Shown piece by piece: positions 1 through 58,204 of a stretch of 64,000 nucleotides of DNA. A model generated the notes under the pieces. That model made no database searches. It saw nothing but the letters and a program-made list of their open reading frames with translations, and was not told the origin of the DNA. This DNA comes from Elusimicrobiota bacterium (GTDB lineage: Bacteria > Elusimicrobiota > Elusimicrobia > UBA1565 > UBA9628), in NCBI GenBank assembly GCA_016182905.1, contig JACPFR010000044.1, positions 59,000 through 122,999 on the forward strand. The letters are read 5' to 3'. The position numbers were made by a program, and so were the translations under genes. Position 1 is the stretch's first letter. Each line of letters starts with the position of its first letter.

Positions 1-1332
1 AACGGGAGTTCTGTCGCTCTTGTCGACCTCCACCGTCTCGCCACCGAGACGGTGGACGTCGAAGGCTTTGGCGAAATCGTTCTTCACCGCATCGACTCCG
101 AAGTTCAAGATCGGACTTCCCAACTTCGCGGAATCACGTGGTGGGTGAAGGGGCGCATGGTGGGCGATCCCTCCTGGGAAGGCCTGGATGGTGAGGGCAA
201 CTACCTCGACGGCCGCACTACGCTCGCCAAGCGGTTCAGCTTCGTGGTCGAGGCGGACATCCTGAAGGACTCTGTGAAGGCTGACTGGGTGGCCTTCCGG
301 GCATCTCCGAAGGTCGAGGCGGTCCGCGAGGCGGTCCACACGCGCATCATCCATGCCCTGAACCTGGTTCAGGCCGAGAACAGGCGCGAGCGCAAGCGTG
401 CGACGCTCGCCCAACACCGCCAGCTCCTGGGCGAGTTGTCCATCACCTCGAAGCGCTACGTCGGGCAATTCATCGACGAGCTTCAGGAGAAATGTCCAAC
501 CATTTCGGAGAAGGATTTAGCCCGGACTGTCGAAATCTACGCGAAGATGGAACAGACCACCTCGGGCTACGACCTTTTGGGCCAGTTGGCTGCGTGTTCG
601 CCTGAGGACATCGACAAGTGGAACGGACTCATGAAGCAGTGGTCCGCGGGACACGCAGAGATTGTCCTTAACGAACTCGAGCGCCGCCTCAAGCTGATCG
701 CCAAGCTCCAGGATCTCGTTGAGACGGTGAAGACGGACGAGCTTCACGATCTCCAACCCTTGTTCGAGCGCGGGCTGTGGATGTTCGGCCCGGAATACGA
801 GGCGGTCGACTTCCACTCCAATCGAGGCCTGGCGACCATCGTCCGGGAATCCCTCGGAGGTACCACCAAGAACGTCGGTCGCGGCCGCCCTGATTTTGTG
901 GCTCTCCCGGAACGATCTATTGGCGTCTACGCGGCCGCCTCGTTTGGGCAAGACGGAGAGGTTTCAGGCGTCCGGAAGATCTTGATCGTTGAGTTGAAGA
1001 AAGGTGGCTTCGACTTGAAGCAGGGTGAGGTCGATCAGGCAAAGCGCTACGCCAAGGCGCTCCGCAAGGCCGGTGACGTGACTGCCGGGACCGTCATCAG
1101 CGCCATCGTTTTGGGCGCTACGATGGAAGCTGATCTGGACCCGGAGAAGATCGGCGATGCCACGTTCATCGAGCCCATGCTCTACCGTACGTTGCTCACC
1201 AGAGCTCACCAGCGCACCTTCAACCTTCAAAAGCGCCTGGAGGCTTCGGGTGCCAAGAGGCCTGTAGACACCGACGTCGAGTCGGTTCTCGAAGAAAAGG
1301 AGCTGCCCCTCAAAGACTCTGTTCGGGCCTAA
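1..1332 (+). CDS. 5'-truncated protein with C-terminal PD-(D/E)xK-like nuclease motif (possible defence nuclease, Shedu/DUF4263-like?)
   Basis: Frame 1 is open from base 1, so the gene continues upstream of the window. C-terminal GRPDFVAL...QDGEVSGVRKILIVELKKG fits a D-x13-E-x-K restriction-endonuclease-like motif. The gene sits beside the AbiE pair and a tRNA. Confidence 0.55.
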   Translation, partial: NGSSVALVDLHRLATETVDVEGFGEIVLHRIDSEVQDRTSQLRGITWWVKGRMVGDPSWEGLDGEGNYLDGRTTLAKRFSFVVEADILKDSVKADWVAFRASPKVEAVREAVHTRIIHALNLVQAENRRERKRATLAQHRQLLGELSITSKRYVGQFIDELQEKCPTISEKDLARTVEIYAKMEQTTSGYDLLGQLAACSPEDIDKWNGLMKQWSAGHAEIVLNELERRLKLIAKLQDLVETVKTDELHDLQPLFERGLWMFGPEYEAVDFHSNRGLATIVRESLGGTTKNVGRGRPDFVALPERSIGVYAAASFGQDGEVSGVRKILIVELKKGGFDLKQGEVDQAKRYAKALRKAGDVTAGTVISAIVLGATMEADLDPEKIGDATFIEPMLYRTLLTRAHQRTFNLQKRLEASGAKRPVDTDVESVLEEKELPLKDSVRA

Positions 1333-1344
1333 CTTCCTTGTCCG

Positions 1345-1368
1345 TCGGGAAAACAACTCATTCCCGAC
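1345..1368 (+). other. Stem-loop (GTCGGGAA / TTCCCGAC) 13 nt after the stop of the first gene; no U-tract
   Basis: 8-bp perfect stem with 8-nt loop seen directly in the sequence. It is not followed by a T-run, so its function as an intrinsic terminator is uncertain. Confidence 0.25.
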
Positions 1369-1453
1369 AGGCCAGATCGCGCAGCCGTTCTTGACGGAGC
1401 CGATCGGTCAGAATTCCAGGGATTGCAGACCGAATCGGATCGAAACAAAAGGC

Positions 1454-1514
1454 TTGACATAATCATTGTCCAGATCAATAATACCTATAGATAGTTTTAT
1501 ATATAGGTATTATT
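1454..1514 (+). promoter_or_regulatory. Promoter (TTGACA-17-AATAAT) overlapping a 13-bp perfect inverted repeat AATAATACCTATA-N12-TATAGGTATTATT; candidate AbiEi autoregulatory operator
   Basis: TTGACA at 1454-1459 and AATAAT at 1477-1482. Inverted-repeat arms at 1477-1489 and 1502-1514 end 4 nt before the abiEi ATG. AbiEi proteins are known to autorepress via inverted repeats in their promoter. Confidence 0.6.
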
Positions 1515-1518
1515 ATCC

Positions 1519-2121
1519 ATGCCCCGAGAATTCACCCGCCAACTCGACATCTTCAAAGCACACCGCGGCGGACTTCATTCGTCCGAAGCCATGCGCCTGG
1601 GAATCCATCCCAGGGCTCTTTATGCCATGCGCGACGCCGGGCTCATTGAAAGGCTCGGCCGCGGACTCTACCGATTCGCAAAAGCTCCCCCGCTCTCAAA
1701 TCCCGATCTGGTCACGGTTGCCCTCAGGGTCCCCAAAGGCATCGTCTGCCTGATCTCCGCGCTCTCCTTCCACGACATCACGACTCAGGTTCCGCATGCG
1801 GTCCATATCGCCCTGCCCTTCGGCACGGAGCGGCCGCGGCTCGATTCCCCTCCTACGCGTTTCTCTTGGTTCAAAGAGCCCGCCTATGGCAGCGGCGCCG
1901 AGACGCACAAGATCGACGGCGTCCACATCCGCGTCTACTCACCGGAGAAGACGGTGGCCGACTGCTTCAAGTTCCGCAACAAGATCGGCCTCGATGTGGC
2001 GCTCGAGGCACTGAAGCTGTGCCTCAAGAAGAAGCGCTCCAAGCCGGATGAACTGCTGAAGTACGCCCGCATCTGCCGCGTCGAGAAAGTCATGCGCCCC
2101 TACCTCGAGGCCCTGCTGTGA
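1519..2121 (+). CDS. abiEi: AbiEi-type antitoxin / transcriptional regulator of a type IV toxin-antitoxin (abortive infection) system
   Basis: 200-aa protein with AbiEi_4-like N-terminal wHTH region (HSSEAMRLGIHPRALYAMRDAGLIERLGRGLYRF). It overlaps the downstream nucleotidyltransferase gene by 4 bp. Confidence 0.8.
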   Translation: MPREFTRQLDIFKAHRGGLHSSEAMRLGIHPRALYAMRDAGLIERLGRGLYRFAKAPPLSNPDLVTVALRVPKGIVCLISALSFHDITTQVPHAVHIALPFGTERPRLDSPPTRFSWFKEPAYGSGAETHKIDGVHIRVYSPEKTVADCFKFRNKIGLDVALEALKLCLKKKRSKPDELLKYARICRVEKVMRPYLEALL

Positions 2122-3029
2122 AAAAACCGCTCAAGAACGTTGCCGCGTCAGTCCGGCAAAAACTCGCCAACCTCGCAAAAGAATCGAAGCGCCCGTTCGC
2201 CGAAATCCTTCAGTACTATGCGATGGAGCGGTTCCTTTATCGGCTCAGCCGGTCGGAATACAAGGATCGCCTCGTGCTCAAGGGCGCGCTGATGTTCGTC
2301 GCCTGGGGCACCCCGCGCTCGCGCGCCACCAAGGATATAGACCTCCTGGCGCGGACGGAAAATTCGATCGCGAATTTGGTGAAAGTCATCCAAGACATCT
2401 GCCGCATCGAAATCGAAACGGACGGAATCGTATTCGATCCGGCGCTCGTGAAGGGCGAGAAGATCAAAGAGGACGTGGATTATGAGGGCGTCCGGCTTCT
2501 ATTCCAGGGGAAGCTGGAACAAGCCCGTATTCATATGCAGATCGACGTCGGCTTCGGCGACAGCGTGACTCCGGCGCCGGCCGCGATCGACTACCCCGTG
2601 ATCCTCGATCTGCCCGCGCCGAAGCTCAAGGGCTACCCGCCGGAGACGGTGGTCGCGGAGAAGTTCGAGGCCATGGTCAAGCTCGGCATGATCAACACCC
2701 GAATGAAGGACTTCTATGATCTTTGGCTGCTGAGTCGTCAGTTCGACTTCGACGGCGAAACGCTGGCCGAGGCGATCCGGACGACCTTCGCGCACCGCGG
2801 CACGACTCTCACGCCAACGCCCACGGCGTTCACGTCCGCGTTCCACGAGGAGAAGCAGCCGCAATGGCGCGCGTTCCTTTCGCGCACGGGCCTCACCGGC
2901 GCGCCGGAGTCGCTCAAGGAGACTATCGCTCCCATCAAAGAATTCCTCATCCCAATCGCTGAGGCAGGCATGGTGGACCGAAAATTCTCCATGCGCTGGG
3001 CGACGCTGGGACCGTGGAAAGCCAAATGA
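2118..3029 (+). CDS. abiEii: AbiEii-type toxin, nucleotidyltransferase (DUF1814)
   Basis: 303 aa. N-terminal nucleotidyltransferase-fold motifs (GALMFVAWGTPRSRATKDIDLL). ATGA/GTGA start-stop overlap with abiEi. Confidence 0.8.
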   Translation: MKKPLKNVAASVRQKLANLAKESKRPFAEILQYYAMERFLYRLSRSEYKDRLVLKGALMFVAWGTPRSRATKDIDLLARTENSIANLVKVIQDICRIEIETDGIVFDPALVKGEKIKEDVDYEGVRLLFQGKLEQARIHMQIDVGFGDSVTPAPAAIDYPVILDLPAPKLKGYPPETVVAEKFEAMVKLGMINTRMKDFYDLWLLSRQFDFDGETLAEAIRTTFAHRGTTLTPTPTAFTSAFHEEKQPQWRAFLSRTGLTGAPESLKETIAPIKEFLIPIAEAGMVDRKFSMRWATLGPWKAK

Positions 3030-3063
3030 CATCCGGTCTCCCGGACTGGCCTACACGTCGATA

Positions 3064-3093
3064 TTGCGAACAACGCGCTAAAACTGGCATAAT
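3064..3093 (+). promoter_or_regulatory. Sigma70-like promoter TTGCGA-18-CATAAT upstream of tRNA-Phe
   Basis: Hexamers at 3064-3069 and 3088-3093. Followed by a 10-bp direct repeat ATCTCGACAA x2 (3121-3142) before the tRNA. Confidence 0.3.
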
Positions 3094-3211
3094 CGCCCGT
3101 CGGCATCCGATTTCCGTTTCATCTCGACAAGGATCTCGACAAAAATTCGGCGGAAGAGGCCCGATTCGGGTCGTGACGGGTCGAAATTCTGCTGAGATTT
3201 TTTATAGATTC

Positions 3212-3286
3212 GGCGGGGTAGCTCAGTGGTAGAGCACCGGTCTGAAAAACCGGGTGTCGACAGTTCGATCCTGTCCCCCGCCACCA
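3212..3286 (+). tRNA. tRNA-Phe: tRNA-Phe (anticodon GAA), CCA encoded
   Basis: GGCGGGG acceptor stem pairing with CCCCGCC. D-arm TAGCTCAGTGGTAGAGC. Anticodon loop CTGAAAA with GAA at positions 34-36. T-arm GTTCGATCC. 3' CCA present. Confidence 0.9.
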
Positions 3287-3290
3287 TTTT

Positions 3291-3725
3291 TTGAAGCGCG
3301 CTATTCCCATCGCCGTCGTCGCGGTCCTCGCGTCCTGGGCGCTCGCCCAGACCGCCGCGGCTCCCGTCGTGAGATCCGCCTCGCAGGTCGACTGGAAAGC
3401 CTCGGGCAGCCTCCCGCCCGGCGCCGAGTACCACCTGATCTACGAGGACCCCAAGACGCACGCGGTGCAGACGTTGGTGCGCTTTCCCCGGGGCTACGCC
3501 CTGTCCCCGCACTCGCATACCGCCGACGAGACCATCCTCGTGCTGAAAGGCAAGCTCGTCATCGAGCTCGCGGGGAAGAAGGAGACCTTGACCGCCGGCG
3601 CCTACGCGATGCTCCCCGGCGGCACGGTCTTCTCCCTTAAGGCTGCCGGCTTCGGCGGCGCGGACTTCCTCGCCGCCTTCAACGGGCCCTTCGACATGAA
3701 GGCCGCCCCCGCCTCCTCCAACTAG
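3291..3725 (+). CDS. Secreted cupin-domain protein
   Basis: TTG start 4 nt after the tRNA. Signal peptide MKRAIPIAVVAVLASWALAQ. Cupin motifs (LVRFPRGYALSPHSHTADETILVLKGKL ... AYAMLPGG). Confidence 0.6.
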   Translation: MKRAIPIAVVAVLASWALAQTAAAPVVRSASQVDWKASGSLPPGAEYHLIYEDPKTHAVQTLVRFPRGYALSPHSHTADETILVLKGKLVIELAGKKETLTAGAYAMLPGGTVFSLKAAGFGGADFLAAFNGPFDMKAAPASSN

Positions 3726-4639
3726 AGACGGAAGGGGATCGCCTTCGGAAGGACCTCGAACACGACGGGCGCCGTCCCGTCCGCGTCCCCGTCGATGTTG
3801 AGCGGCAGGGGCTCCTCGGAGTGTATCTCGACGCGGCGCGCGCGCCGCAGGACGACGCCGGGACGGCCGGCGTGTCCGCCCGAATACGCCCGGGGCAGCA
3901 GCGACATCAGCTCCGGACGCGTCATGTCGCCGATCGTGAGCAGGTCGAGCAGCCCGTCCTCCGCGTCCGCCTGCGGGGCGAGCCTCATGCCCCCGCCGAA
4001 GGTGCTCGTGTTGGCCGCGGCCACGAGGTGGTAGCGCGCCGCCGGCTCCGCGACGCCGTCGACCGTGAGGCGCATGCTCCGCGCCTTCGCCGTCGCCACG
4101 GACAGCACGCCCTCGACGAGATAGGTCAAGGTGCCGCCGAGGAACTTACCGCGCGCGGCCACGGACAGCGCCACGTCGCCGGGCAGCCCGAGCGCCGCGA
4201 CGTTGAGGAAGTGCCGGGAGCGCGGCGCGCCGTCCGCCGCGCGGAAGGTCGCGCGCCCCGCGTCGAGGCGCCGGCGCTTGCCCTCGGCGAAAGCCTTGGC
4301 CCATGCCTCGGGCTCTCGCGGCACGCCCATGTGATTGGCGAAGTCGCAGCCCGACCCGGCGGGGAAGGTCGCGAGGACCGTGTTGCGGCGCACATGCTCG
4401 GGCACCGCGAGGAAGCCGTCGACGACCTCGCCGAGGGTGCCGTCGCCGCCGACCGCGACGATGAGCTCCATGCCGTCCGCCGTCGCCTGCCGCGTCAGCT
4501 CCCGCCCGTGCCCCGGCTTCTCGGTGCGCGCCAGCTCCAGGTCCGGGAAAAGGTCCTTGGCGAGCGCGCGGGCCCTGTCCCAGCGCCCCCCCGCCCGCCC
4601 GTGCCCCGCCGCCGGATTGACTATGAACAGCGTTCTCAT
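3722..4639 (-). CDS. Diacylglycerol-kinase catalytic-domain family lipid kinase (YegS/BmrU-like)
   Basis: MRTLFIVNPAAGHGRA ... IVAVGGDGTLGEVVDG is the DAGK_cat signature. 305 aa. Confidence 0.8.
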   Translation of the reverse strand: MRTLFIVNPAAGHGRAGGRWDRARALAKDLFPDLELARTEKPGHGRELTRQATADGMELIVAVGGDGTLGEVVDGFLAVPEHVRRNTVLATFPAGSGCDFANHMGVPREPEAWAKAFAEGKRRRLDAGRATFRAADGAPRSRHFLNVAALGLPGDVALSVAARGKFLGGTLTYLVEGVLSVATAKARSMRLTVDGVAEPAARYHLVAAANTSTFGGGMRLAPQADAEDGLLDLLTIGDMTRPELMSLLPRAYSGGHAGRPGVVLRRARRVEIHSEEPLPLNIDGDADGTAPVVFEVLPKAIPFRL

Positions 4640-4832: not shown

Positions 4833-6113
<1,281 letters not shown>

Positions 6114-6182: not shown

Positions 6183-6290
6183 AGGCCTACTTCCGCCCTG
6201 AGGCATAAGGCCTAGCACCGTCTAGGCCTAAAGGCCTATGCCCTAGGTCCTACGTCTCGAACGCGTAGGCCCTCTTCCTGGGTCCTAACG
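6183..6290. repeat. Array of short AGGCCTA / palindromic TAGGCCTA motifs (4 perfect, 3 degenerate copies) between the two S8 genes
   Basis: AGGCCTA at 6184, 6208, 6224 and 6232. Variants AGGTCCTA, TAGGCCC and GGTCCTA follow. The same motif recurs at 7569-7575 and 7607-7613, upstream of the second S8 gene. Confidence 0.6.
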
Positions 6291-7502
6291 AACGAGCTTG
6301 GCCGCGTCCACGACGCCGGCGCCCTGCTCGGACGCGGAAAGTCCGGGAACCTTGACGGCCGCGCGGCGCAGCGCCGCGCGGACGGCGGCTTCGCCGTGAG
6401 CGCCGCGGGCGACCGCGAGGGCGCCCAGGCCCGCCATGTGGGGCGTCGCCATCGACGTCCCCGCGTAGTTGTCGTAGCCGCCGCCGGGGACCGAGGACTT
6501 CACGTCCACGCCCGGCGCGATGAAGGCGACCTGATTGCCGCGGCTGGAGAATTTGGCGATCGTCTCGTTCGGGGCGAGCGCGGAGACCGTGATCGCCTCG
6601 GGATACGCGCCCGGGTAGTTGACCGAGCCGCCGTCGTTGCCCGCGGCCGCGAACACGGCCACGCCGCGCACCGTCGCGTACTTGAGGGCGGCGCGCATGA
6701 AGATCGTGCCCATCGGGGCGCCGAGGCTCATGTTGGCGACGTCCATCTTGTTGTTGCCGCACCAGATCAGGCCCTTGATGATGGAGGTGAGCCCGCCCGC
6801 CCCGTCCTTGTCGAGGACCTTGACCGCGTACAGGCGCGCCTTCGGGGCCACGCCGACGACGCCCTGGCCGTTGAGGACGCCCGCGATCGTGCCGGCGACG
6901 TGCGAGCCGTGAGCGTTGTCGTCCATCGGCGGCTTCTTCGGATCGAGCGCGTTGTAGCCTCCGGCGCAGTTGGCCTTGAGGTCGGGATGGCCGCAGTCGA
7001 TGCCGGTGTCGATGACCGCGACCTTCACGCCCTCGCCCTTCGTGACGGCCCAGGCGGCGGGAGCGTCGACCCGGGCGATGCCCCACGGGACCTCGGCGGC
7101 GTCCACGCCCGCCGGAAGCGGGAAGACGGGGCGCGCCGGCGGAGCGGCGACGGCGGGAAGGGCGGCGCGGACGGACTCATAAGAAGGAAAGGGCGCGTGG
7201 AAGACGGGGGCCTCGAGCAGCCAGTTCCTATATATGTCCTCCTGCACCTCGAGGACCTCGGGCATGGCGGCGGCCTTCTCGGCGAAGGCCGAGAACATCT
7301 TGGCCTCGGGGAGCAGGGCGACGAGCGCGCCGATCTCGGAGAGATCGTCGGCCTTGGTCGCGCCGAGCTCGCGCAGGGCGGCCTCGCGCTGGGCGGGGGT
7401 CGTGCCGTCCCTGAACGCGATCAGATAGCGCTTGGCGCCCGCGGCGGACGCGCACACCGGCAGCAGCACGGCGAGAATCGACAACGCGATCAGTTTTTTC
7501 AT
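6285..7502 (-). CDS. Secreted subtilisin-like serine protease (peptidase S8), paralog of 4833..6113
   Basis: Start placed at MKKLIALSILAVLL with AGGAGG ribosome-binding site. The longer 691-aa ORF is an upstream extension. Motifs VAVIDTGIDCGHPDL, HGSHVAGTIAG, GTSMATPHMAG. Confidence 0.88.
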   Translation of the reverse strand: MKKLIALSILAVLLPVCASAAGAKRYLIAFRDGTTPAQREAALRELGATKADDLSEIGALVALLPEAKMFSAFAEKAAAMPEVLEVQEDIYRNWLLEAPVFHAPFPSYESVRAALPAVAAPPARPVFPLPAGVDAAEVPWGIARVDAPAAWAVTKGEGVKVAVIDTGIDCGHPDLKANCAGGYNALDPKKPPMDDNAHGSHVAGTIAGVLNGQGVVGVAPKARLYAVKVLDKDGAGGLTSIIKGLIWCGNNKMDVANMSLGAPMGTIFMRAALKYATVRGVAVFAAAGNDGGSVNYPGAYPEAITVSALAPNETIAKFSSRGNQVAFIAPGVDVKSSVPGGGYDNYAGTSMATPHMAGLGALAVARGAHGEAAVRAALRRAAVKVPGLSASEQGAGVVDAAKLVR

Positions 7503-7664: not shown

Positions 7665-8387
7665 ATGATCGAATACCTCGCCGCGCTCTCGCTCCTCGCC
7701 GTCGCCGCGCCCGCCCTCGCCCAGCCCGCCGCCGATCCGCCGCTCGTGGACGCCGTCAAGGCGGGAGACGCCGCGGGCCTGAAGGCGCGCCTCGCCGCGG
7801 GAGCGGACCTCGGGGCCAAGGACGCCCACGGCTGGACCGCGGTGATGTGGGCCGCGGGGCACGCCGACGGGGCGACGCTGAAGGCCTTGCTGGACGCGGG
7901 GGCGGACCCCGCGCCGAAGGACGAGCCCGGCTGGTCGGCGATCGTCGAGGCCGCGAAGGGCGGCAAGGCGGCGAACGTCGCCCTGCTCGCCGCGAAAGGC
8001 CTCGACTGCTCGGCCAAGGACTCCGCCGGGGTCCCCGCGCTCGCCTACGCGGCGGCGGTCTCGACGCCGGCCGTCTCGGCCCTGCTCGCGTGCAAGGCCA
8101 AGGTCGACGCGCGCGACTCGAACGGGCTCACGGCGCTGACCCGCGCCGCCCAGCTCGGCCGCGCCGCCGCGGCGGGCCGGCTCATCGCGGCCGGCGCCAA
8201 GGTCGACGCGAAGGACGCCCTCGGCTACACCGCCTTGATGTGGGCCGCCCACGGCGGCTGGACCGACACGGTGAAGACGCTCCTCGCGGCGAAGGCGGAT
8301 CCGAAGCTGAAGAGCGGCGACGGTCTGACGGCGCGGGAGCTCGCCCTCAAGCGCGGCCACGCCGCGGCCGCGGACCTCCTGGAATAG
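7665..8387 (+). CDS. Secreted ankyrin-repeat protein
   Basis: Signal peptide MIEYLAALSLLAVAAPALA. Roughly six ANK repeats (GWTAVMWAAGHADGATLKALLDAGADP, GYTALMWAAHGGWTDTVKTLLAAKADP and others). Confidence 0.8.
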   Translation: MIEYLAALSLLAVAAPALAQPAADPPLVDAVKAGDAAGLKARLAAGADLGAKDAHGWTAVMWAAGHADGATLKALLDAGADPAPKDEPGWSAIVEAAKGGKAANVALLAAKGLDCSAKDSAGVPALAYAAAVSTPAVSALLACKAKVDARDSNGLTALTRAAQLGRAAAAGRLIAAGAKVDAKDALGYTALMWAAHGGWTDTVKTLLAAKADPKLKSGDGLTARELALKRGHAAAADLLE

Positions 8388-26881: not shown

Positions 26882-27480
26882 CTCCTAGTATTCCATTCGG
26901 CCGAACGGTAGCGTGATTCGAGTTCCAGACCTTTGGCGATCCATGACGGAAGAAGGTCGACCGAAGGTCGACCGAATTCGCGAGTGATCCCTTCGATGAT
27001 CGTCGCTTCGGGCACGCTGACCCGCAACGAGCCCTGATATAACCCTTTAACGCCTTTCTTACGCAAGGCCCCGCCTAAGATCTTCTTGTCGTCCGCGTCG
27101 ACGAGGTCGGCTTTTTCCGCCCGGGCGAAACAGCTGGCCGCGATCCCCGGCGCTTTGTCCTTGGGGCTCCACATCCCGTTGACGGTCCCGCGCGCCTTCA
27201 GGGCCTGATGGATCCCCCGGTGGATGTTCTTGTAGATCGTCTCCGGCGCGCACGTCCGGTCCCACGGGAACACGAGGCTGAAGGTGACGTCCCCGTCGTG
27301 ATGAACGATCCCCCCGCCCGTCGCCCGGCGCACGGGCGCTACGCCGGTCTTGCAGGCCGCCTTCGCGTCTTCATATCTCTGCGAGTAGCCGAACGTGCAG
27401 CCCTCGCCCTTCCACTCGTAGACGCGCAGGACGAGCGCGTCCGGCGGCGACTCGAGCAGCACGGCCTCGTCGAGAGCCAT
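26878..27480 (-). CDS. Lipoyl(octanoyl) transferase / BPL-LPL catalytic-domain protein (LipB-like)
   Basis: Start at MALDEAVLLESPPDALVLRVYEWK. Last gene of the gcv operon, consistent with lipoylation of GcvH. 200 aa. Confidence 0.65.
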   Translation of the reverse strand: MALDEAVLLESPPDALVLRVYEWKGEGCTFGYSQRYEDAKAACKTGVAPVRRATGGGIVHHDGDVTFSLVFPWDRTCAPETIYKNIHRGIHQALKARGTVNGMWSPKDKAPGIAASCFARAEKADLVDADDKKILGGALRKKGVKGLYQGSLRVSVPEATIIEGITREFGRPSVDLLPSWIAKGLELESRYRSAEWNTRR

Positions 27481-27512
27481 ATGGCCCGCCGCGTCGAGGA
27501 CGAGCCGGCGGC

Positions 27513-30330
<2,818 letters not shown>

Positions 30331-30344
<14 letters not shown>

Positions 30345-30732
30345 GCGCGGCCTCGGCTTTCAGGAACTCCTCGTACGCCGCCTCGGTCATGAGCTTCGCC
30401 GCCTCGTCGGGAGCGGACGCCTTGAGCTTGAACAGCCAGCCCTTGCCGAAGGCCTCGGCGTTGACGAGCGCGGGGTCCTTGACGACGTCCGCGTTCACCG
30501 CGGTGATCTCGCCGGAGACCGGGGCGTAGATGTCGAAGGCGGCCTTCACCGACTCGACGACGCAGCACGCCTCGCCCTGCTTGACCGTGCGGCCGACCTT
30601 CGGGGGTTCGACGAAGACCACGTCCGTGATCTCCTTCTGCGCGTGGTCGGAGATGCCCACCGTGCCCGCGTCGCCCTGCAGGTCCAGCCACTCGTGCGAC
30701 TTCATGTACATTAATTTCTTCGGATCGAGCAT
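30331..30732 (-). CDS. gcvH: Glycine cleavage system H protein
   Basis: HEWL ... VGISDHAQ ... lipoyl-lysine motif ESVKAA. 133 aa. Confidence 0.9.
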
Positions 30733-30735
30733 AAA

Positions 30736-31854
30736 TCAGGCCCCCTTCTTGAGGTTAGGTGAGATGTAAAACGGCGTTTTGACGATCTCCGCGGCGATGT
30801 CCCGTCCGTGAAGTACGACCGAGACTTTCGTTCCCGGCGGGAGGTCCGGTCTATCAAGGTACCCCGTCCCGATGCCCGCCTGCAGGCTCGGCGAGTACGT
30901 CGCCGAACAGAACTTCCCGATCTCCTTGCCGTCCAGCATGACCGAGGCGCCCGCGCGCGGCACGCCGCGCTCGAGCAGCTTCACGCCGGTGAGCTTCTTC
31001 TTGATGCCCTCCGCCTTCTGCTTGACCAAGGCGGCCTTGCCGATGAAGTCGCCCTTGTCCAGCTTCACGACCCAGCCGTAATTGGCCTCGAAGGTGCTGA
31101 GGTCGTCGTCGAGGTCCTGTCCGTACAGGAGGTAGCCCGCCTCGAGGCGGAGCACGTCGCGGGCGCCGAGGCCGCACGGCGCCGCGCCGAGCGAACGGCC
31201 CTGCGCGAGCAGGTCCTCCCAGACGCGGACGACGATCTCGCTGGGCACGATGAACTCGCAGCCGTCCTCGCCGGTGTAGCCGGTGCGGGTGATGAAGGAG
31301 GGCTGCCCGTACAGCTCGAGCTCAAGCGCGCCGAAGCGCGGCAGGGACGCCATCGCGGGGGCGATCATCGACGCGATCTCGGCCGCCTTCGGACCCTGGA
31401 CCGCGATCATGCCGTAGAGGTCGGACTTGTTCTCGAGCTTCACGTCGAAGCCCTTCGCGTGCTTCTGGAACCAGGCGAAGTCCTTGTCGGCCGTGGCCGC
31501 GTTGACGACGATCAGGTAGCGGTCCTTGGCGAGGCAGGAGACGATGACGTCGTCGACGACCCCGCCCTTCTCGTTGGGCAGGTGGGAGTAGATCGCCTTG
31601 CCCGGGCCGATGCGGGAGATGTCGTTGGCGTTGACCTTCTGAAGGAAGGCGAGCGCGCCGGGGCCCGTCGCGAACACCTGGCCCATGTGGGAGACGTCGA
31701 ACAGGCCGCAGCGGTGGCGCGCGGCCTCGTGCTCCTTCATGATCGATTCGTACTGGACCGGCAATTCCCACCCGTGGAAATCGACGATCTTACCGCCCAG
31801 GTTCTTGTGGCTTTCGTACAGCGCCGTGCGACGCGCGACAGCCGAGGTGGACAT
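30736..31854 (-). CDS. gcvT: Glycine cleavage system T protein (aminomethyltransferase)
   Basis: TALYESH ... VDFHGWELPVQY ... GLFDVSHMG. 372 aa. Confidence 0.9.
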   Translation of the reverse strand: MSTSAVARRTALYESHKNLGGKIVDFHGWELPVQYESIMKEHEAARHRCGLFDVSHMGQVFATGPGALAFLQKVNANDISRIGPGKAIYSHLPNEKGGVVDDVIVSCLAKDRYLIVVNAATADKDFAWFQKHAKGFDVKLENKSDLYGMIAVQGPKAAEIASMIAPAMASLPRFGALELELYGQPSFITRTGYTGEDGCEFIVPSEIVVRVWEDLLAQGRSLGAAPCGLGARDVLRLEAGYLLYGQDLDDDLSTFEANYGWVVKLDKGDFIGKAALVKQKAEGIKKKLTGVKLLERGVPRAGASVMLDGKEIGKFCSATYSPSLQAGIGTGYLDRPDLPPGTKVSVVLHGRDIAAEIVKTPFYISPNLKKGA

Positions 31855-31932
31855 ATGACTAAATTAGCATTTAGCAATAAGTCCGACAATGACCGCGGCC
31901 ACCGCCCGCGACGGCGCCGGATTCGCCGTTTT

Positions 31933-31946
31933 ATGACCATGGTCAT
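31933..31946. promoter_or_regulatory. 14-bp perfect palindrome ATGACCATGGTCAT in the divergent gcvT / 31999-gene intergenic region
   Basis: Seen directly in the sequence, centred on CCATGG. Lies in the gcvT 5' leader on the minus strand. No glycine riboswitch consensus was found here. Confidence 0.35.
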
Positions 31947-31998
31947 GGTCGAGGCGCGGGCAGGGCCTTCATACTAACGAGAAGCGAACAGGAGAACC

Positions 31999-33159
31999 AT
32001 GAACTCGAATCCCTCCGTTTCGGCCCCGGCGCGCGCGATCGGAAGCCTGCTGCTGGCGCTGGCGCCGTTCGCGCCGCCGGCGGCGGCCCAAAGCACGCGC
32101 CATTACGAGGCCGCCGACCCGAACGCGTCCGGCGAGGACGCGAAGGCGTCGCCGGCCCCTGCCGCCGCGGCGTCGCGTCCGGCCCGCTCGGCCCCTCGCG
32201 TCTTTCGCGTCGTCCGGCCCGGAGGCATCCACGCCGAGGCGAACGTGGAGAGTTCGGCCCCGGTCATGGGCGAAGTCGAAGCCGTCGTCGGAGCCGGCAT
32301 CGGTACCGGCGCGAAGGACAAGAGCCCCGGCGCCAATCCCGCGAGGCGCTACTGGGGCGGCTCGAACGGGGCCTCGACCGCTCCCGCGAAGCCGATCACG
32401 TCCTCCGGTCCCAGCGGCCCGGCGAAGCCGCCCAAACAAGGGATCCGCGTCGTCGACGACAAGAAGAACCCGATCGCCTCGGGCTCGTTCTTCGACACGC
32501 AGACCGTTTATTTCCAGATCTTCGGCTACGACGAGAAGGACACGTCCGTTTGCCTGGAGAGCCTGGTCATGAAGGGAGACCTATTAGGGGACTGCGCCGA
32601 TTTCGTGAAATTGCCCGACACGACTTACTCGATCAGCTACAACAACGGGAGATTCTCCTACGCCAACGGGATATGGGAAGCGAGGTACAAGAGCATCTAC
32701 TGGTACGACACGCTGCGCATCTCAGTGACCAACTCGAAGGGCGAGAAGTCGGTCAAAACGTTCCGTACCACCGGCTCGGAAACGCACCCCTCCGCGCTGG
32801 GCCGCCACTTCGTCGACGGCAAGGTCAAGAACTCGCCGTACAAGAGAGGGGAGATCGTCGAGGTCCATATTTTCGGATTCGACGAGAAGGACGCTTTTGT
32901 CTGCACGCAGATCCGCGACGACGCGACCCATGCCGACATCGCCGTCTGCTCTCCGTACGCCGATTTCAGCCGCTTCACGAAGCTGCCGGGCCAAAACTGG
33001 TCCTATCAAAACGGCGCTTGGGTCAAGAAATTCAACACCAACGACATGAGGCTGGATACGACCTATTACGTGCGCCTCAGGAACTCGAAGAACGCCGAGT
33101 ACGCGGACATGCTGCAGTTGATGAGCCACCCCCCCGGCTTCGTCGTGGGGCCGAACTAG
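31999..33159 (+). CDS. Secreted protein with two tandem copies of a roughly 70-aa Cys-containing domain; C-terminal half in a low-GC segment
   Basis: Signal peptide present. Internal repeat: FFDTQTVYFQIFGYDEKDTSVCLE...LPDTTYSISYNNG versus IVEVHIFGFDEKDAFVCTQI...LPGQNWSYQNGAW. GC falls to roughly 55% over 32450-33160. Confidence 0.55.
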   Translation: MNSNPSVSAPARAIGSLLLALAPFAPPAAAQSTRHYEAADPNASGEDAKASPAPAAAASRPARSAPRVFRVVRPGGIHAEANVESSAPVMGEVEAVVGAGIGTGAKDKSPGANPARRYWGGSNGASTAPAKPITSSGPSGPAKPPKQGIRVVDDKKNPIASGSFFDTQTVYFQIFGYDEKDTSVCLESLVMKGDLLGDCADFVKLPDTTYSISYNNGRFSYANGIWEARYKSIYWYDTLRISVTNSKGEKSVKTFRTTGSETHPSALGRHFVDGKVKNSPYKRGEIVEVHIFGFDEKDAFVCTQIRDDATHADIAVCSPYADFSRFTKLPGQNWSYQNGAWVKKFNTNDMRLDTTYYVRLRNSKNAEYADMLQLMSHPPGFVVGPN

Positions 33160-42315: not shown

Positions 42316-43671
42316 ATGGCGAAAAAACCCCTGATCCACTTCGTCGGCATCGGGGGCGCGGGCATGAGCGCGCTGGCGCAGATCCACGCCATGGACGGCG
42401 GCCCGGCGACGGGCTCCGACCGGGACTTCGACCGCGGGCGGGGCGCGGGGCTGAAGGCCAAGCTCGAGGCCCTCGGCGTGAAGCTGTTCCCGCAGGACGG
42501 CAGCGCGCTCACCGATGGAACGGAGCTCGTGGTGCTGTCCACCGCCATCGAGGACTCCAACCCCGAGATCGCCGCGGCCAAGGCCCGCGGCGTGCCCCTG
42601 ATGCACCGCTCCGAGTTCCTGGCCCGCCACGTGTCGGAGATGCGCACCATCGCGGTCACCGGCACGAGCGGCAAGTCCACCGTCGTCGCGATGATCTTCG
42701 AGATCCTCGAGGCCGCCGGGCGCGGGCCGTCCGTCATCACCGGCGGCGCGCTGATCGCGCTTCAGAAGCGCGGGCTCACCGGCAACGCCTTCCGCGGGAA
42801 GTCGGACATCCTCGTCGTCGAGGCGGACGAGAGCGACGGCTCCTTGGTCAATTACAAGCCGGCCGTCGGCGTGTTCCTCAACCTGACCAAGGATCACCTG
42901 GAGGTCTCCGCCCTGCGCGAGATCCTCCTCAAGTTCCGGCTCCACGTCGCGACGGCGCTGGTCAACGGGGACGACGCCGCGCTGGCCGGCATCCGCGCCG
43001 ACGCCACGTTCGGCTTGTCGTCCGGCTCCGTTCACGCCGAAGGCCTCGAGCTCGAGGCCGCCGGCTCTCGGTTCCGCGTGAAGGACGTCTCATTCGAGCT
43101 TCCCGTCCCCGGCCGTCACAACGCCGAGAACGCGATCGCCGCGATCGCGGCGTGCGTCAACGAAGGCGTCTCGCTGGCCGACTGCGCCCGGGGATTGGCC
43201 GGCTTCCAGGGCGTGACGCGCCGCTTCCAGAGTCTCGGCTCCGCGCGCGGGGTGGAGGTCGTCGACGACTTCGCGCACAATCCGGCGAAGATCGCGGCGA
43301 CCCTCACCGCCGCCCGCCTGCGCGGCCGCCGGACCTTGGCCGTCTATCAGCCCCACGGCTTCGCGCCGACCCGCCATCTCAAGAACGAGCTCATCGCGGC
43401 CTTCGCCGAGGGCCTGCGCCCCGAGGACCGGCTTTGGCTGCCCGACATCTACTACGTCGGCGGCACGGCGAGCAAGGACATCTCCTCGAACGACGTCGTC
43501 GCCCCGCTGAAGGCCAAGGGCCTTCACGCCTTCCACGTGCCCGACCGCGCCGCCATCGCCGCCCTGATCGCCGCCGAGGCGAAAGAGGGAGACCTCGTCA
43601 TCGTCATGGGCGCGCGCGACCCCTCCCTGTCCGACTTCGCCCGCGAGGTCCTCGCGGCCTTGCGTCCCTGA
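42316..43671 (+). CDS. Mur ligase (UDP-N-acetylmuramate--L-alanine ligase MurC-like or murein-peptide ligase Mpl)
   Basis: IHFVGIGGAGMSALAQ ... VTGTSGKSTVVAM ... DESDGS ... HNAENA. Stand-alone rather than inside a dcw cluster, and next to a peptidoglycan hydrolase. Confidence 0.8.
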   Translation: MAKKPLIHFVGIGGAGMSALAQIHAMDGGPATGSDRDFDRGRGAGLKAKLEALGVKLFPQDGSALTDGTELVVLSTAIEDSNPEIAAAKARGVPLMHRSEFLARHVSEMRTIAVTGTSGKSTVVAMIFEILEAAGRGPSVITGGALIALQKRGLTGNAFRGKSDILVVEADESDGSLVNYKPAVGVFLNLTKDHLEVSALREILLKFRLHVATALVNGDDAALAGIRADATFGLSSGSVHAEGLELEAAGSRFRVKDVSFELPVPGRHNAENAIAAIAACVNEGVSLADCARGLAGFQGVTRRFQSLGSARGVEVVDDFAHNPAKIAATLTAARLRGRRTLAVYQPHGFAPTRHLKNELIAAFAEGLRPEDRLWLPDIYYVGGTASKDISSNDVVAPLKAKGLHAFHVPDRAAIAALIAAEAKEGDLVIVMGARDPSLSDFAREVLAALRP

Positions 43672-56234: not shown

Positions 56235-57084
56235 CCGGCCGCGCCGGCGGGGCGGAAAGGGCGCGGATCGCCTCCTCGGGAGACTTGAAATGGTCCAAGA
56301 GGGCGTGCAGCCAGCGCTCGATGCCGAACGCGACGCAGCCCGTGTAGGCGGGCTTGCCGTCGGCGGTCGTTATGCGGCAGCGGTCTCCGAAGAAGTTCCG
56401 GTGGAAATTCATCGAGCCGAACGCCAGCGATCCCCCGTAGACGAACTCCTCCTTCGTCGGGAACAGGGCCTGCATCGAGGCCCTCGGGTTCGCGGGCTGG
56501 AAGAAGGGGTCGGTGGCGGCCTTGATCTCGAACGGCAGACCGAGCCCGCGGAGGAACCCCTGGATCATGCCCTTGAACGAAAGGAGGTGCTCCTGGACAG
56601 CGTCCATGGGGCCGACGCAGACGATCTCGCGCATCGAGAAGCCCCAGAGCCGCGACAAGCCGGCGTATTCCGTCTCGTTGCGGAAGCAGCTCGCGATCGT
56701 CGTGACGTACGCCGGCGCGTCGAGGCGCGTGTCCTGCAGGTGCAGATAGACGTTGTAGCAGGCGGCCGAGGGGAGGACGTGCGCGCTCGACGTCATGTGC
56801 TCCGCCGCGATCTCCTCGACGCCGGCTTTGAGCGCGTACTCCGCCTCGAGCTTCGACGCGGCGATCCTGGAGACGGACGCCGCCAGGTGCGGGAAATTCT
56901 TGAAGTAATCGAAGCGGCTCAGGTCCTTGACGCGCATCAGCGGGGGGAACAGCATCGGAGCCGCCCGGCGCGTCCGCGCCCACTCCAGGAACCGCCGGTC
57001 CAACATCGTACGGATGCGGACCATCTCGGGACCCAACGTCGCCAGCCCCTGCTCGACGCTATACGCTGACTTGAGTCCTCTCAT
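56182..57084 (-). CDS. Amino acid:[carrier protein] ligase (truncated class II aaRS / atypical SerRS-like catalytic core, no tRNA-binding domain)
   Basis: Class II motif 2 CFRNETEYAG...REIV and motif 3 GCVAFGIERW. Candidate zinc-ligand Cys residues. About 300 aa with no N-terminal coiled coil. Lies immediately downstream of the carrier-protein gene. Confidence 0.7.
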   Translation of the reverse strand: MRGLKSAYSVEQGLATLGPEMVRIRTMLDRRFLEWARTRRAAPMLFPPLMRVKDLSRFDYFKNFPHLAASVSRIAASKLEAEYALKAGVEEIAAEHMTSSAHVLPSAACYNVYLHLQDTRLDAPAYVTTIASCFRNETEYAGLSRLWGFSMREIVCVGPMDAVQEHLLSFKGMIQGFLRGLGLPFEIKAATDPFFQPANPRASMQALFPTKEEFVYGGSLAFGSMNFHRNFFGDRCRITTADGKPAYTGCVAFGIERWLHALLDHFKSPEEAIRALSAPPARPVSAARRRRHEAARSLAT

Positions 57085-57328
57085 TTTTCCCCTCCTCCAG
57101 GATGTTGGTCCGGATCAGCCGCAAGGTGCGCAGCGAATTCGCGGCCGACCCGGCCGCCAGCGGGATCCGCCTGCCGGTGAGCTCTTCCATGAAATAGACG
57201 AAGTTGATGAACGTGACCGAATCCAGGATCCGGTTGTCGATCAAGTCGGTGTCCAGATCGATCTCCTTGACGTCAGGCCTCTCCCGCAGCAGCCACTTCT
57301 TGACCTCTCCGATCCGTTCGTCGTCCAT
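57059..57328 (-). CDS. Dedicated acyl/peptidyl carrier protein (89 aa)
   Basis: Phosphopantetheine attachment motif LDSV (Ser36) in helix II. GGAGGA ribosome-binding site. 26-nt overlap with the ligase gene. Confidence 0.7.
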   Translation of the reverse strand: MDDERIGEVKKWLLRERPDVKEIDLDTDLIDNRILDSVTFINFVYFMEELTGRRIPLAAGSAANSLRTLRLIRTNILEEGKNERTQVSV

Positions 57329-57340
57329 GTGTCCTCCTTC

Positions 57341-58204
57341 CTAATGCAACGCGTCGAGCCGCTCGACCATGCCGTAGGTCCGCAAGAAGGCGAGGGACCG
57401 GGAGAGGAGTATCCCGTGCTGCTTCCGCCGTCCGGGCTGCCGGAGCAGCTCCCGACGGAACCCGTAGGCGTCCCGGATCCCCGCGTCCGCGTACATCTGC
57501 GGGTTGTAGAACGACTGGAGGGTGAAGGAGACGTACTCCTTGAGCTGGCCGCGGAAGACCGCCTCTTCCTCGGGGCCCAAGCGGCCGAGCAGCGCGTGAA
57601 GGTGCCGGGCGATCTGCCGGCCGGCGGCGATGTGCCTCGATTCGTCGGCGTGGTGCGCCGCGTTCAGGGCGCGGACGATCGGGGGCAGCCGCGCGTCCCC
57701 GCTCATCCGGATGTTGAAATGATCCCCGATCTCCTCGAATATGAGGATGCGCAGGAACACCAGGAAGAGGTCGAGCTCGGGGCGGATGTCGTCCTCCGAG
57801 ACGCTGACCGTCGAATCGGGATAGATCTTGCCGTACCGCCGGCAGAATTCCGAGAAGAACCACATGTGGTGGTTCTCTTCAGCGATGAACCGGTGGAAGA
57901 AATCGGAAGGGACCTCGAAGCCGCCCGTGTGGATGTGCCGGCTGATCACCATGATCAGCTCGCGCTCGCCGTGAAGGGTCAGGCTGAAGAAATTCAGGAG
58001 CGCGCGCCGGCTGAGCGCCTTCAGGGTCCGCTCGTCGAGGACGTCCATCAGCGGCGTGCCGTGGACGGACATGAGCTCCGGCGGCATCAGCCATTCGTCC
58101 TCGCCGATGCTTCCCGGCCATGCGAAGCGGCGGCGAGGATCGCAGTCGCGCTCGATCGAGCTCGCCGTCAGCTTCTCCAGAACCGCCGCGTAGGCCTCGC
58201 TCAT
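57341..58204 (-). CDS. Ferritin-like di-iron oxygenase of the AurF/CmlI (arylamine N-oxygenase) family
   Basis: Two ExxH motifs plus an extra His (EENHH, EEIGDH, HADESRH). 287 aa. First gene of the operon with the carrier protein and ligase. Confidence 0.6.
   Translation of the reverse strand: MSEAYAAVLEKLTASSIERDCDPRRRFAWPGSIGEDEWLMPPELMSVHGTPLMDVLDERTLKALSRRALLNFFSLTLHGERELIMVISRHIHTGGFEVPSDFFHRFIAEENHHMWFFSEFCRRYGKIYPDSTVSVSEDDIRPELDLFLVFLRILIFEEIGDHFNIRMSGDARLPPIVRALNAAHHADESRHIAAGRQIARHLHALLGRLGPEEEAVFRGQLKEYVSFTLQSFYNPQMYADAGIRDAYGFRRELLRQPGRRKQHGILLSRSLAFLRTYGMVERLDALH

Follow-up and report, generated by a model that had tools for sequence, protein, structure and literature searches.

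A Shedu-like GHKL ATPase-nuclease gene and an AbiE module in a probable defence islet beside a tRNA-Phe gene of an Elusimicrobia genome

The left end (positions 1..3290) of a 64,000-nucleotide stretch of an Elusimicrobiota genome (contig JACPFR010000044.1 of assembly GCA_016182905.1, positions 59,000 to 122,999; hereafter, the window is this whole stretch) encodes, in this order, the C-terminal part of a protein that combines a GHKL-type ATPase with a PD-(D/E)xK nuclease domain, the two components of an AbiE toxin-antitoxin system, AbiEi and AbiEii, and a tRNA-Phe (Table 1). The stop codon of the GHKL-nuclease gene and abiEi are separated by an AT-rich spacer of 186 bp, and 182 bp lie between the end of abiEii and the tRNA-Phe gene, which was the only RNA family found by Rfam over positions 1..4000. 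In a preliminary description of this locus, the first gene was viewed as a nuclease-domain gene truncated by the window and the whole segment as a patch of anti-phage defence genes bordered by a tRNA.

Table 1. Features at the left end of the window (positions are those of the window)
Feature	Coordinates	Strand	Basis or remark
3' part of GHKL ATPase / PD-(D/E)xK nuclease gene	1..1332	+	residues 195-637 and stop; frame 1 open from base 1
End of GHKL-associated middle (transducer-like) beta region (residues ~195-300) and helical linker (~300-435)	1..720	+	AlphaFold secondary structure, Foldseek
C-terminal restriction-endonuclease-fold nuclease domain, residues ~436-608	724..1242	+	
Catalytic candidate E441	739-741	+	
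Catalytic candidate D492	892-894	+	
Catalytic candidate E525	991-993	+	
Catalytic candidate K527	997-999	+	
Catalytic candidate Q540	1036-1038	+	
Catalytic candidate Y544	1048-1050	+	
Putative abiE promoter, TTGACA-17-AATAAT (1454-1482), with 17-nt inverted repeat	1454..1514	+	promoter scan, repeat complementarity
abiEi, antitoxin / transcriptional repressor, 200 aa	1519..2121	+	PF13338, PADLOC, PDB 6y8q/9hlo_A
abiEii, DUF1814 nucleotidyltransferase toxin, 303 aa	2118..3029	+	PF08843, PADLOC, PDB 9hlo_B
tRNA-Phe (GAA), right border of low-GC islet	3212..3286	+	ARAGORN; Rfam RF00005, 73 bits

Frame 1 is open from the first base of the window to the stop codon at 1330-1332, so that the gene indeed continues past the left edge. 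A protein search with the 443-residue fragment encoded in the window retrieved a 637-amino-acid protein with 100% identity (MBI2387041.1, annotated as 'ATP-binding protein' of an Elusimicrobia metagenome-assembled genome; hereafter, P0001); base 1 of the window corresponds to codon 195, and the first 194 codons lie outside. With this length, the gene is not especially large, contrary to the preliminary description. Because the gene is complete on a public Logan contig (hereafter, L001), the truncation is an effect of the window edge rather than a sign of a pseudogene. More than 860 homologues were found with the 443-residue fragment, nearly all of them 630-690 amino acids long. The fragment itself has no match in Pfam, PADLOC or NCBIfam, and it is only the full-length protein that reveals the GHKL domain, with PF13589 (HATPase_c_3) matching residues 29-140 (E 2.5e-17) and with profile matches of the N-terminus to Hsp90/GRP94 and MutL/PMS2. 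The residues that characterize the Bergerat fold, namely, E33, N37, D40, D62-x-G64-x-G66 and G106/G109/G111, are conserved, each of them in at least 60 of 61 diverse relatives (E33 in 60, N37 and D40 in all 61). When the whole AlphaFold model of P0001 (pLDDT 75.5) was compared using Foldseek, it matched Hsp90/TRAP1, the MORC4 ATPase and MutL LN40 over 350-480 columns; the alignments run past the GHKL domain (351 columns, TM 0.47, target-normalised, for MutL LN40; 379 columns, TM 0.39, for the MORC4 ATPase), into what may be an S5-fold (transducer) domain. Given that Hsp90, MORC and MutL dominate this search, it is uninformative on the nuclease domain. P0001 consists of an N-terminal GHKL ATPase of the MutL/Hsp90/MORC type, a helical linker and a C-terminal PD-(D/E)xK nuclease.

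The conservation of the C-terminal domain was read from alignments of 29 and 61 diverse relatives, and the signature that emerges comprises E441, R490-P491-D492, E525-L-K527, Q540 and Y544, each of which is present in 59-60 of the 61 sequences (K527 in 60). Judging from the sequence, this is the E-D-ExK pattern, joined by the Q...Y element that characterises the RecB-like representatives of the restriction-endonuclease fold. An E-x-K by itself would be unremarkable, and it is the near-invariance across phyla, in combination with RPD and QxxxY, that does not appear to be due to chance. The preliminary description had placed a D-x13-E-x-K motif in the peptide QDGEVSGVRKILIVELKKG, which corresponds to residues 511-529 of the full protein. 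The E-x-K of this motif is the nearly invariant E525-L-K527 and so stands, whereas the aspartate, D512, does not: it is separated from the glutamate by 12 rather than 13 residues, is an aspartate in only 15 of the 61 relatives and sits in a beta-hairpin turn of the model, so D512 was rejected as the catalytic aspartate on the grounds of conservation.

The Pfam family that was most often matched among 27 diverse relatives is PF14082 (DUF4263/SduA_C), the C-terminal domain of Shedu, with 7 relatives showing matches that cover profile positions 3-83, that is, the E/PD/ExK/Q..Y catalytic core; a homologue from a Caballeronia plasmid (26% identity) also matches this profile (E 1.1e-3). Relative to the gathering score of this family, 27 bits, the window protein falls short, with no match at E <= 1 for the whole protein or at E <= 10 for the domain. 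When the PDB sequences were searched with a C-terminal-domain profile, a spurious match to Niban was all that emerged. In structure comparisons of the nuclease domain, the figures are 8.2 for FokI, 7.8 and 7.7 for R.BspD6I and N.BspD6I, 7.1 for both NucS and EcoT38I, 6.5 for both MspJI and the nuclease domain of Bacillus cereus Shedu (8ti9), 6.3 for Upx, 5.8 for B. cereus Shedu (8ti8) and 5.1 for Escherichia coli SduA (8ps4). This comparison, which depends on a predicted model, supports the nuclease fold and does not prove a specific relationship with Shedu. Thus, the suggestion in the preliminary description that the upstream gene ends in a PD-(D/E)xK domain of the kind found in Shedu-like effectors is borne out, with the Shedu C-terminal domain as the nearest, subthreshold, Pfam relative. 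We read the domain as a probable remote homologue of DUF4263 that stops short of formal membership in Shedu.

Proteins with this combination of domains are not without precedent. The paraMORC3 family, as described by Iyer, Abhiman and Aravind in 2008, consists of a GHKL domain, an S5 domain and a C-terminal, RecB-related restriction-endonuclease-fold domain with the E-D-ExK pattern, is sporadically distributed, and its nuclease-bearing members are mostly stand-alone (PMC2292703). The family described here resembles paraMORC3 in its intact GHKL ATP-binding motifs, middle domain and C-terminal E-D-ExK domain, and in its sporadic, laterally mobile distribution, being mostly stand-alone and sometimes associated with SNF2 helicases and methylases; our assignment to paraMORC3 follows architecture and motifs, not a reference sequence. 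The taxonomic ranges differ in that paraMORC3 was described mainly from Proteobacteria and Bacteroidetes, whereas the present clade is best represented in Acidobacteriota, Planctomycetota and Verrucomicrobiota, and its range includes archaea. GHKL-fused DUF4263 proteins have been placed in type 1D Shedu by Gu et al. (10.1101/2023.08.10.552793), and perhaps the most relevant case is VcSduA of pandemic Vibrio cholerae, described in 2025, which protects against T1-like phages, which loses protection upon the E27A (ATPase) or K557A (nuclease) substitution, which protects at all multiplicities of infection, pointing to direct rather than abortive defence, and which is predicted to form an entwined dimer (PMC12137116). 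Like this type I-D Shedu protein, P0001 is a single polypeptide of about 600-650 amino acids with a GHKL ATPase, a clamp-like middle part and a C-terminal PD-(D/E)xK nuclease; the equivalents of E27 and K557 are E33 and K527, respectively, which, by analogy with the VcSduA mutants, are likely to be essential. VcSduA works as a single gene and is found in variable genomic islands, as is the window's protein. The differences are that VcSduA was reported as a DUF4263 match, whereas P0001 has no Pfam DUF4263 match and its relatives score below the threshold, and that the host of VcSduA is a proteobacterium, in contrast to the Elusimicrobia genome analyzed here. With canonical SduA (B. cereus 8TI8/8TI9; E. 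coli 8PS4), the shared features are single-gene defence and a PD-(D/E)xK nuclease that follows a regulatory N-terminal region, but the N-terminus is a GHKL domain here and sPC4/Whirly-like there, and the nuclease domain is only 14-17% identical to that of canonical SduA, with 32 residues between D492 and E525. Of the features that define Shedu, P0001 displays the conserved catalytic aspartate and (D/E)xK on a PD-(D/E)xK fold and the independence from an obligatory partner; a PF14082 score above the gathering level is missing.

The second module is far closer to what is known, and the AbiE identification made in the preliminary description is corroborated by family, defence and structure profiles. 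AbiEi matches PF13338 (AbiEi_4; E 2.2e-10) and, over its full length, the PADLOC AbiEi profile (E 2.7e-74), and its residues 9-197 align with Streptococcus agalactiae AbiEi (PDB 6y8q/9hlo_A; E 1.7e-6), as fits an antitoxin with a winged helix-turn-helix at the N-terminus and a neutralisation domain at the C-terminus. AbiEii matches PF08843 (E 2e-46), the PADLOC AbiEii profile (E 4.2e-112) and PDB 9hlo_B (E 2.9e-26). Hence the check with PADLOC, which had been proposed for the locus, recovers both AbiE proteins and passes over the GHKL-nuclease. The start of abiEii overlaps the stop of abiEi by 4 nt (2118-2121), and the translation of AbiEii contains the nucleotidyltransferase motifs I-IV, namely, LKGA-x15-DID (motif I/II), QIDVGFGD, EKFEAMVKLG and KDFYD (motif IV), in accord with the motif definitions hG[G/S/A]x15DhD, motif III and +DxxD that proved essential in the work of Dy et al. 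(PMC3985639). The putative promoter matches at 11 of 12 positions in the promoter scan, and it overlaps an inverted repeat of 17 nt (1477-1493 / 1498-1514) with 94% complementarity. Given that AbiEi is known to autoregulate via inverted repeats in the promoter (PMC3985639, PMC7319586), this repeat is likely to be the AbiEi operator. The module thus shares with the S. agalactiae and Lactococcus AbiE systems (PMC3985639; PDB 6Y8Q, 9HLO) an operon of two genes that overlap by 4 nt, a promoter that contains an inverted repeat, the winged helix-turn-helix antitoxin and the DUF1814 nucleotidyltransferase toxin with motifs I-IV and the x15 spacing. Motif I reads G-A here, unlike the G-G of S. agalactiae, where, however, the G50A variant is still toxic, so that an alanine is tolerated in this position (PMC3985639); furthermore, a single 17-nt inverted repeat is present here, whereas inverted repeats have been described in S. 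agalactiae and Mycobacterium tuberculosis (PMC7319586), and in sequence the window's AbiE is only distantly related to the solved proteins, as the E value of AbiEi indicates. By all these signs, the AbiEi/AbiEii pair is a complete, canonical module.

Both modules lie in DNA that differs in composition from the rest of the window. The GC content is ~0.58-0.60 in positions 1..3000, compared with ~0.70 across most of the remainder, and, at a resolution of 300 nt, the step is located at the tRNA-Phe gene, with about 0.50-0.65 before position 3212 and 0.67-0.75 after it. L001 (6432 bp), which overlaps the window over 3239 nt with 0 mismatches, position 1 of the window being position 3194 of L001, spans the islet, and its GC content is 0.54-0.63 throughout. 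Altogether, the islet is ~6.4 kb long with ~60% GC in a genome of ~70% GC. The upstream extension, which had been proposed in the preliminary description, reveals the complete gene with its GHKL N-terminus and two further islet genes; from left to right, L001 carries these two genes on the opposite strand, the GHKL-nuclease gene and the AbiE pair. The two genes (L001 291-1052 and 1060-2454, both on the minus strand) encode proteins of 253 and 464 amino acids, the latter containing an extended coiled-coil as well as predicted membrane helices; no Pfam family matches either protein, and the only PADLOC matches, to JetC/LmuB, are weak and of the coiled-coil kind. We rejected them as candidate defence genes because these matches are at E ~1e-4 and without Pfam support. 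The first 30 nt of L001, ~3.2 kb to the left of base 1 of the window, are identical to positions 8-37 of the tRNA-Phe and are followed by 11 unrelated bases and then by the 9-nt acceptor 3' strand CCCCCGCCA. ARAGORN makes no tRNA call on this remnant, and the 39-mer of the left junction was not found in the JGI metagenomes. The sequence is a decayed copy of tRNA-Phe in direct orientation relative to the intact gene, so the low-GC segment is flanked by a decayed copy and an intact gene. Given that the remnant represents the 5' half of the tRNA and not its 3' end, the arrangement lacks the hallmark expected of a classic integrase-borne island. Of the features that are expected of a tRNA-integrated island, the compositional break at the tRNA is present, and, within the 6.4 kb covered, the integrase and the distal repeat of the tRNA 3' end are not; accordingly, the idea of the tRNA as an island border holds as far as the sharp GC step goes and, for lack of an integrase or a classic att repeat, goes no further than composition and the tRNA remnant.

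The search with the C-terminal-domain profile, run against 1.84 billion cluster representatives (clusters at 50% identity), yielded 616 proteins at E <= 1e-3, 234 of these at E <= 1e-30, and in every full-length match, the domain occupies approximately residues 430-640 of a protein of ~630-660 amino acids. The GHKL-nuclease family is one coherent architecture of modest abundance. A genome scan produced 79 loci from Elusimicrobia, Acidobacteriota, Planctomycetota, Verrucomicrobiota, Bacteroidota, Cyanobacteria, Chloroflexota, Deinococcus, Proteobacteria and methanogenic archaea; homologues with 37-39% identity, annotated only as 'ATP-binding protein', are found on plasmids of Rhizobium, Agrobacterium, Azospirillum and Tritonibacter, and tRNA genes occur within 10 kb in ~10 of 60 loci. 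Open reading frames were called in all 79 loci and the neighbours clustered into families. The most frequent neighbour family is present in no more than 14 loci, and none is universally conserved, so the GHKL-nuclease gene is basically stand-alone. There is, nevertheless, a recurrent context: in 12 of the 79 loci, the homologue is on the same strand as, less than 300 bp from and often overlapping a gene for a DrmD-like helicase and/or a DrmMI-like/type IIG methyltransferase, and in ~5 further loci, DrmD-like/DrmMI-like genes lie within ~6 kb. The helicase is an SNF2 protein of ~1050 amino acids (PADLOC DrmD, E = 0; also the PADLOC DrmA profile, E = 0), and the methyltransferase, 1100-1500 amino acids, is of the Eco57I/MmeI type and matches DrmMI or type IIG profiles. 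The gene order in these 12 apparent operons (L038 6756-16188, L020 9863-19285, L047 9959-18507, L006, L011, L019, L044, L046, L049, L050, L057 and L069) is variable, and no conserved DrmA/B/C partner emerged from the neighbour clustering, a procedure that did not include a DrmA/B/C profile search. These loci may represent a DISARM-like or restriction-modification (R-M) variant that uses the GHKL-nuclease. Other neighbourhoods include type I or type III R-M genes, an AAA_13 ATPase and RhuM. In a Verrucomicrobia genome (L010 2557-9955), the GHKL-nuclease gene starts 4 bp after a gene for an 869-amino-acid AAA_13/SMC-like ATPase, which is preceded by a gene for a 1371-amino-acid protein without a clear family, and the gene after the nuclease belongs to the RhuM family; the arrangement is possibly a further defence context made up of several genes. 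On a conjugative plasmid of S. agalactiae (CP138365.1; L082 6064-7809), a GHKL protein that is only distantly related (23% identity) and whose C-terminus weakly resembles NucS_C / HSDR_N is encoded between an R-M pair of the HaeIII family and another cytosine methyltransferase, in agreement with the R-M-embedded paraMORC context described in 2008. The family thus behaves as mobile defence genes do, and not as a repair enzyme would. As the preliminary description anticipated for the vicinity of this gene, other defence genes are indeed often near, the family being patchy and frequently found beside R-M or DISARM-type genes.

Drawing on gene content, domains, conserved residues, fold, islet composition and gene context, all of which are directly observed, we consider it likely that positions 1..3290 are the right half of a horizontally acquired islet that lies beside tRNA-Phe and carries two independent defence modules. 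Under this scenario, the GHKL-nuclease, by analogy with VcSduA and B. cereus Shedu, would form dimers via its GHKL domains, the C-terminal nuclease with its predicted active site of E441/D492/E525/K527 would be gated by the binding and hydrolysis of ATP in the GHKL/middle clamp, and the nuclease would cut the invading DNA directly, without killing the host. AbiEi would repress its operon at the inverted repeat and neutralise AbiEii; when this control is lost during infection, the nucleotidyltransferase would stop growth, resulting in abortive infection, and the module would also stabilise the islet. The enzymatic activities, the trigger, the DNA target and the anti-phage phenotype, as everything said on function here, we infer from homology and published work on relatives. 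Several observations weigh against this interpretation. The nuclease domain of the window protein has no match in Pfam, PADLOC or NCBIfam; the SduA_C matches of its relatives are all below the gathering score, the best reaching 20.5 bits (E 5.8e-4); a Foldseek search of the nuclease domain against the PDB gave nothing significant, and the segment that contains RPD492 is modelled at low confidence. Furthermore, the likeness to VcSduA is one of architecture and equivalent residues; the two upstream islet genes have no defence function recognisable with Pfam or PADLOC, and the 6.4 kb that L001 and the window provide contain neither an integrase gene nor an att-type repeat.

That the GHKL-nuclease could instead be a housekeeping repair enzyme, either MutL-like or NucS/RecB-like, the latter having been named in the preliminary description as the outcome that would overturn its view, is suggested by the resemblance of the GHKL domain to MutL and by the automatic name 'DNA mismatch repair protein' given to one homologue in UniRef. 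However, the protein lacks the MutL C-terminal dimerisation/endonuclease domain and a MutS context, its N-terminal ATPase is a GHKL domain as in paraMORC3 and type I-D Shedu, the distribution is sporadic across phyla and includes plasmids, the neighbours are R-M and defence genes, and the gene itself lies in a low-GC islet, so that we deem a role in repair extremely improbable. Only marginally more credible, and in our judgement very unlikely, is a single coupled system of three genes formed by the GHKL-nuclease and AbiE, even though the adjacency is seen in three lineages: in the window, the order is GHKL-AbiEi-AbiEii; in the Rhodobacterales, AbiEi-AbiEii lies directly upstream of the GHKL homologue with gaps of ~50 bp (L084 4149-7911, on Tritonibacter plasmid NZ_CP136706.1, and L059 2801-6608, in Pelagivirga); and in the Verrucomicrobia genome, an AbiE pair lies ~1.7 kb downstream (L010 9959-15134). 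The AbiE pairs of these three loci belong to subfamilies unrelated to that of the window (24% identity over 110 residues), the gene order varies, the pairing occurs in only 3 of ~80 loci, and in the window, the 186-bp spacer with its own predicted promoter separates the two units. Because AbiE is very common in defence islands, chance co-location with a GHKL gene is to be expected, and the adjacency probably reflects co-residence in such islands; a functional link was judged unlikely on the same counts.

A different kind of dependence, in which the GHKL-nuclease is a restriction or motor-accessory subunit of a system with a DrmD-type SNF2 helicase and a DrmMI-type/type IIG methyltransferase and is, in the window, an orphan that is either inactive or served by unlinked partners, would explain the 12 loci with a close partner and the ~5 with a more distant one and has been foreshadowed by the prediction that paraMORCs act within R-M operons (PMC2292703). 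Yet ~80% of the loci lack such partners, and DrmD-like or DrmMI-like sequences are absent both from the 64-kb window, as searched with tblastn, and from L001; paraMORC3 proteins with a nuclease mostly occur alone (PMC2292703), VcSduA functions as a single gene (PMC12137116), and all the catalytic residues are intact in the window's protein, so we regard this version as unlikely. Somewhat less remote, although still rather doubtful, is a broader proposal in which the clade is a separate, uncatalogued branch of ATP-gated defence nucleases, with at least 616 clusters at 50% identity, that is missed by PADLOC 2.0, NCBIfam and the Pfam DUF4263 threshold; the ~1/6 of the loci inside DrmD-DrmMI operons would then constitute an undescribed DISARM-like / R-M hybrid with a GHKL-nuclease effector, and the stand-alone copies would be a methylation-independent derivative. 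The alternative that deserves the most serious consideration, and which we treat as conceivable albeit less probable than defence, concerns the AbiE pair, which might be mainly an addiction module that retains the islet rather than a means of phage defence. AbiE systems stabilise mobile elements besides conferring phage resistance (PMC3985639), the pair is at the edge of a small foreign islet, and AbiE pairs of an unrelated subfamily flank the GHKL homologue on the Tritonibacter plasmid and in Pelagivirga. On the other hand, the AbiE family was discovered as an abortive-infection system, the module adjoins another defence-type gene, and addiction and defence are not exclusive, with nothing in the sequence to separate them.

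Since both modules of the likely two-module defence islet belong to known kinds, the novelty is low: the islet is a real but fairly ordinary defence patch, and what the window itself yields is the routine annotation of a small islet of defence genes next to a tRNA gene. Beyond the window, the analysis adds Elusimicrobia and many phyla of soil and water to the known range of the GHKL-ATPase/nuclease (paraMORC3, type I-D Shedu-like) class. PADLOC 2.0, the Pfam gathering thresholds and NCBIfam miss this clade, and as a consequence, the genes carry no label more specific than 'ATP-binding protein' or 'DNA mismatch repair protein'. This gap in the profile libraries seems worth keeping in mind, along with the odd tRNA remnant at the far end of the islet and the recurrence of the family inside DrmD/DrmMI operons, which provides a testable link between Shedu-type nucleases and DISARM/R-M.

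To the right of the islet, the window contains tandem paralogous genes for secreted subtilisin-like (S8) proteases (4833-6113 and ~6285-7500, both on the minus strand); judged by the translations, both possess the GHGSHVAGTIA and GTSMA(A/T)PH motifs and a signal peptide, and they are followed by an ankyrin-repeat gene (7665-8387) and then by a long TPR-like gene. A second tRNA gene, tRNA-Ser, is located at 42502-42588 on the minus strand, and the other stretches of lower GC content in the window, at ~27000-33000 and 57000-58000, are at 0.63-0.66 compared with ~0.70.

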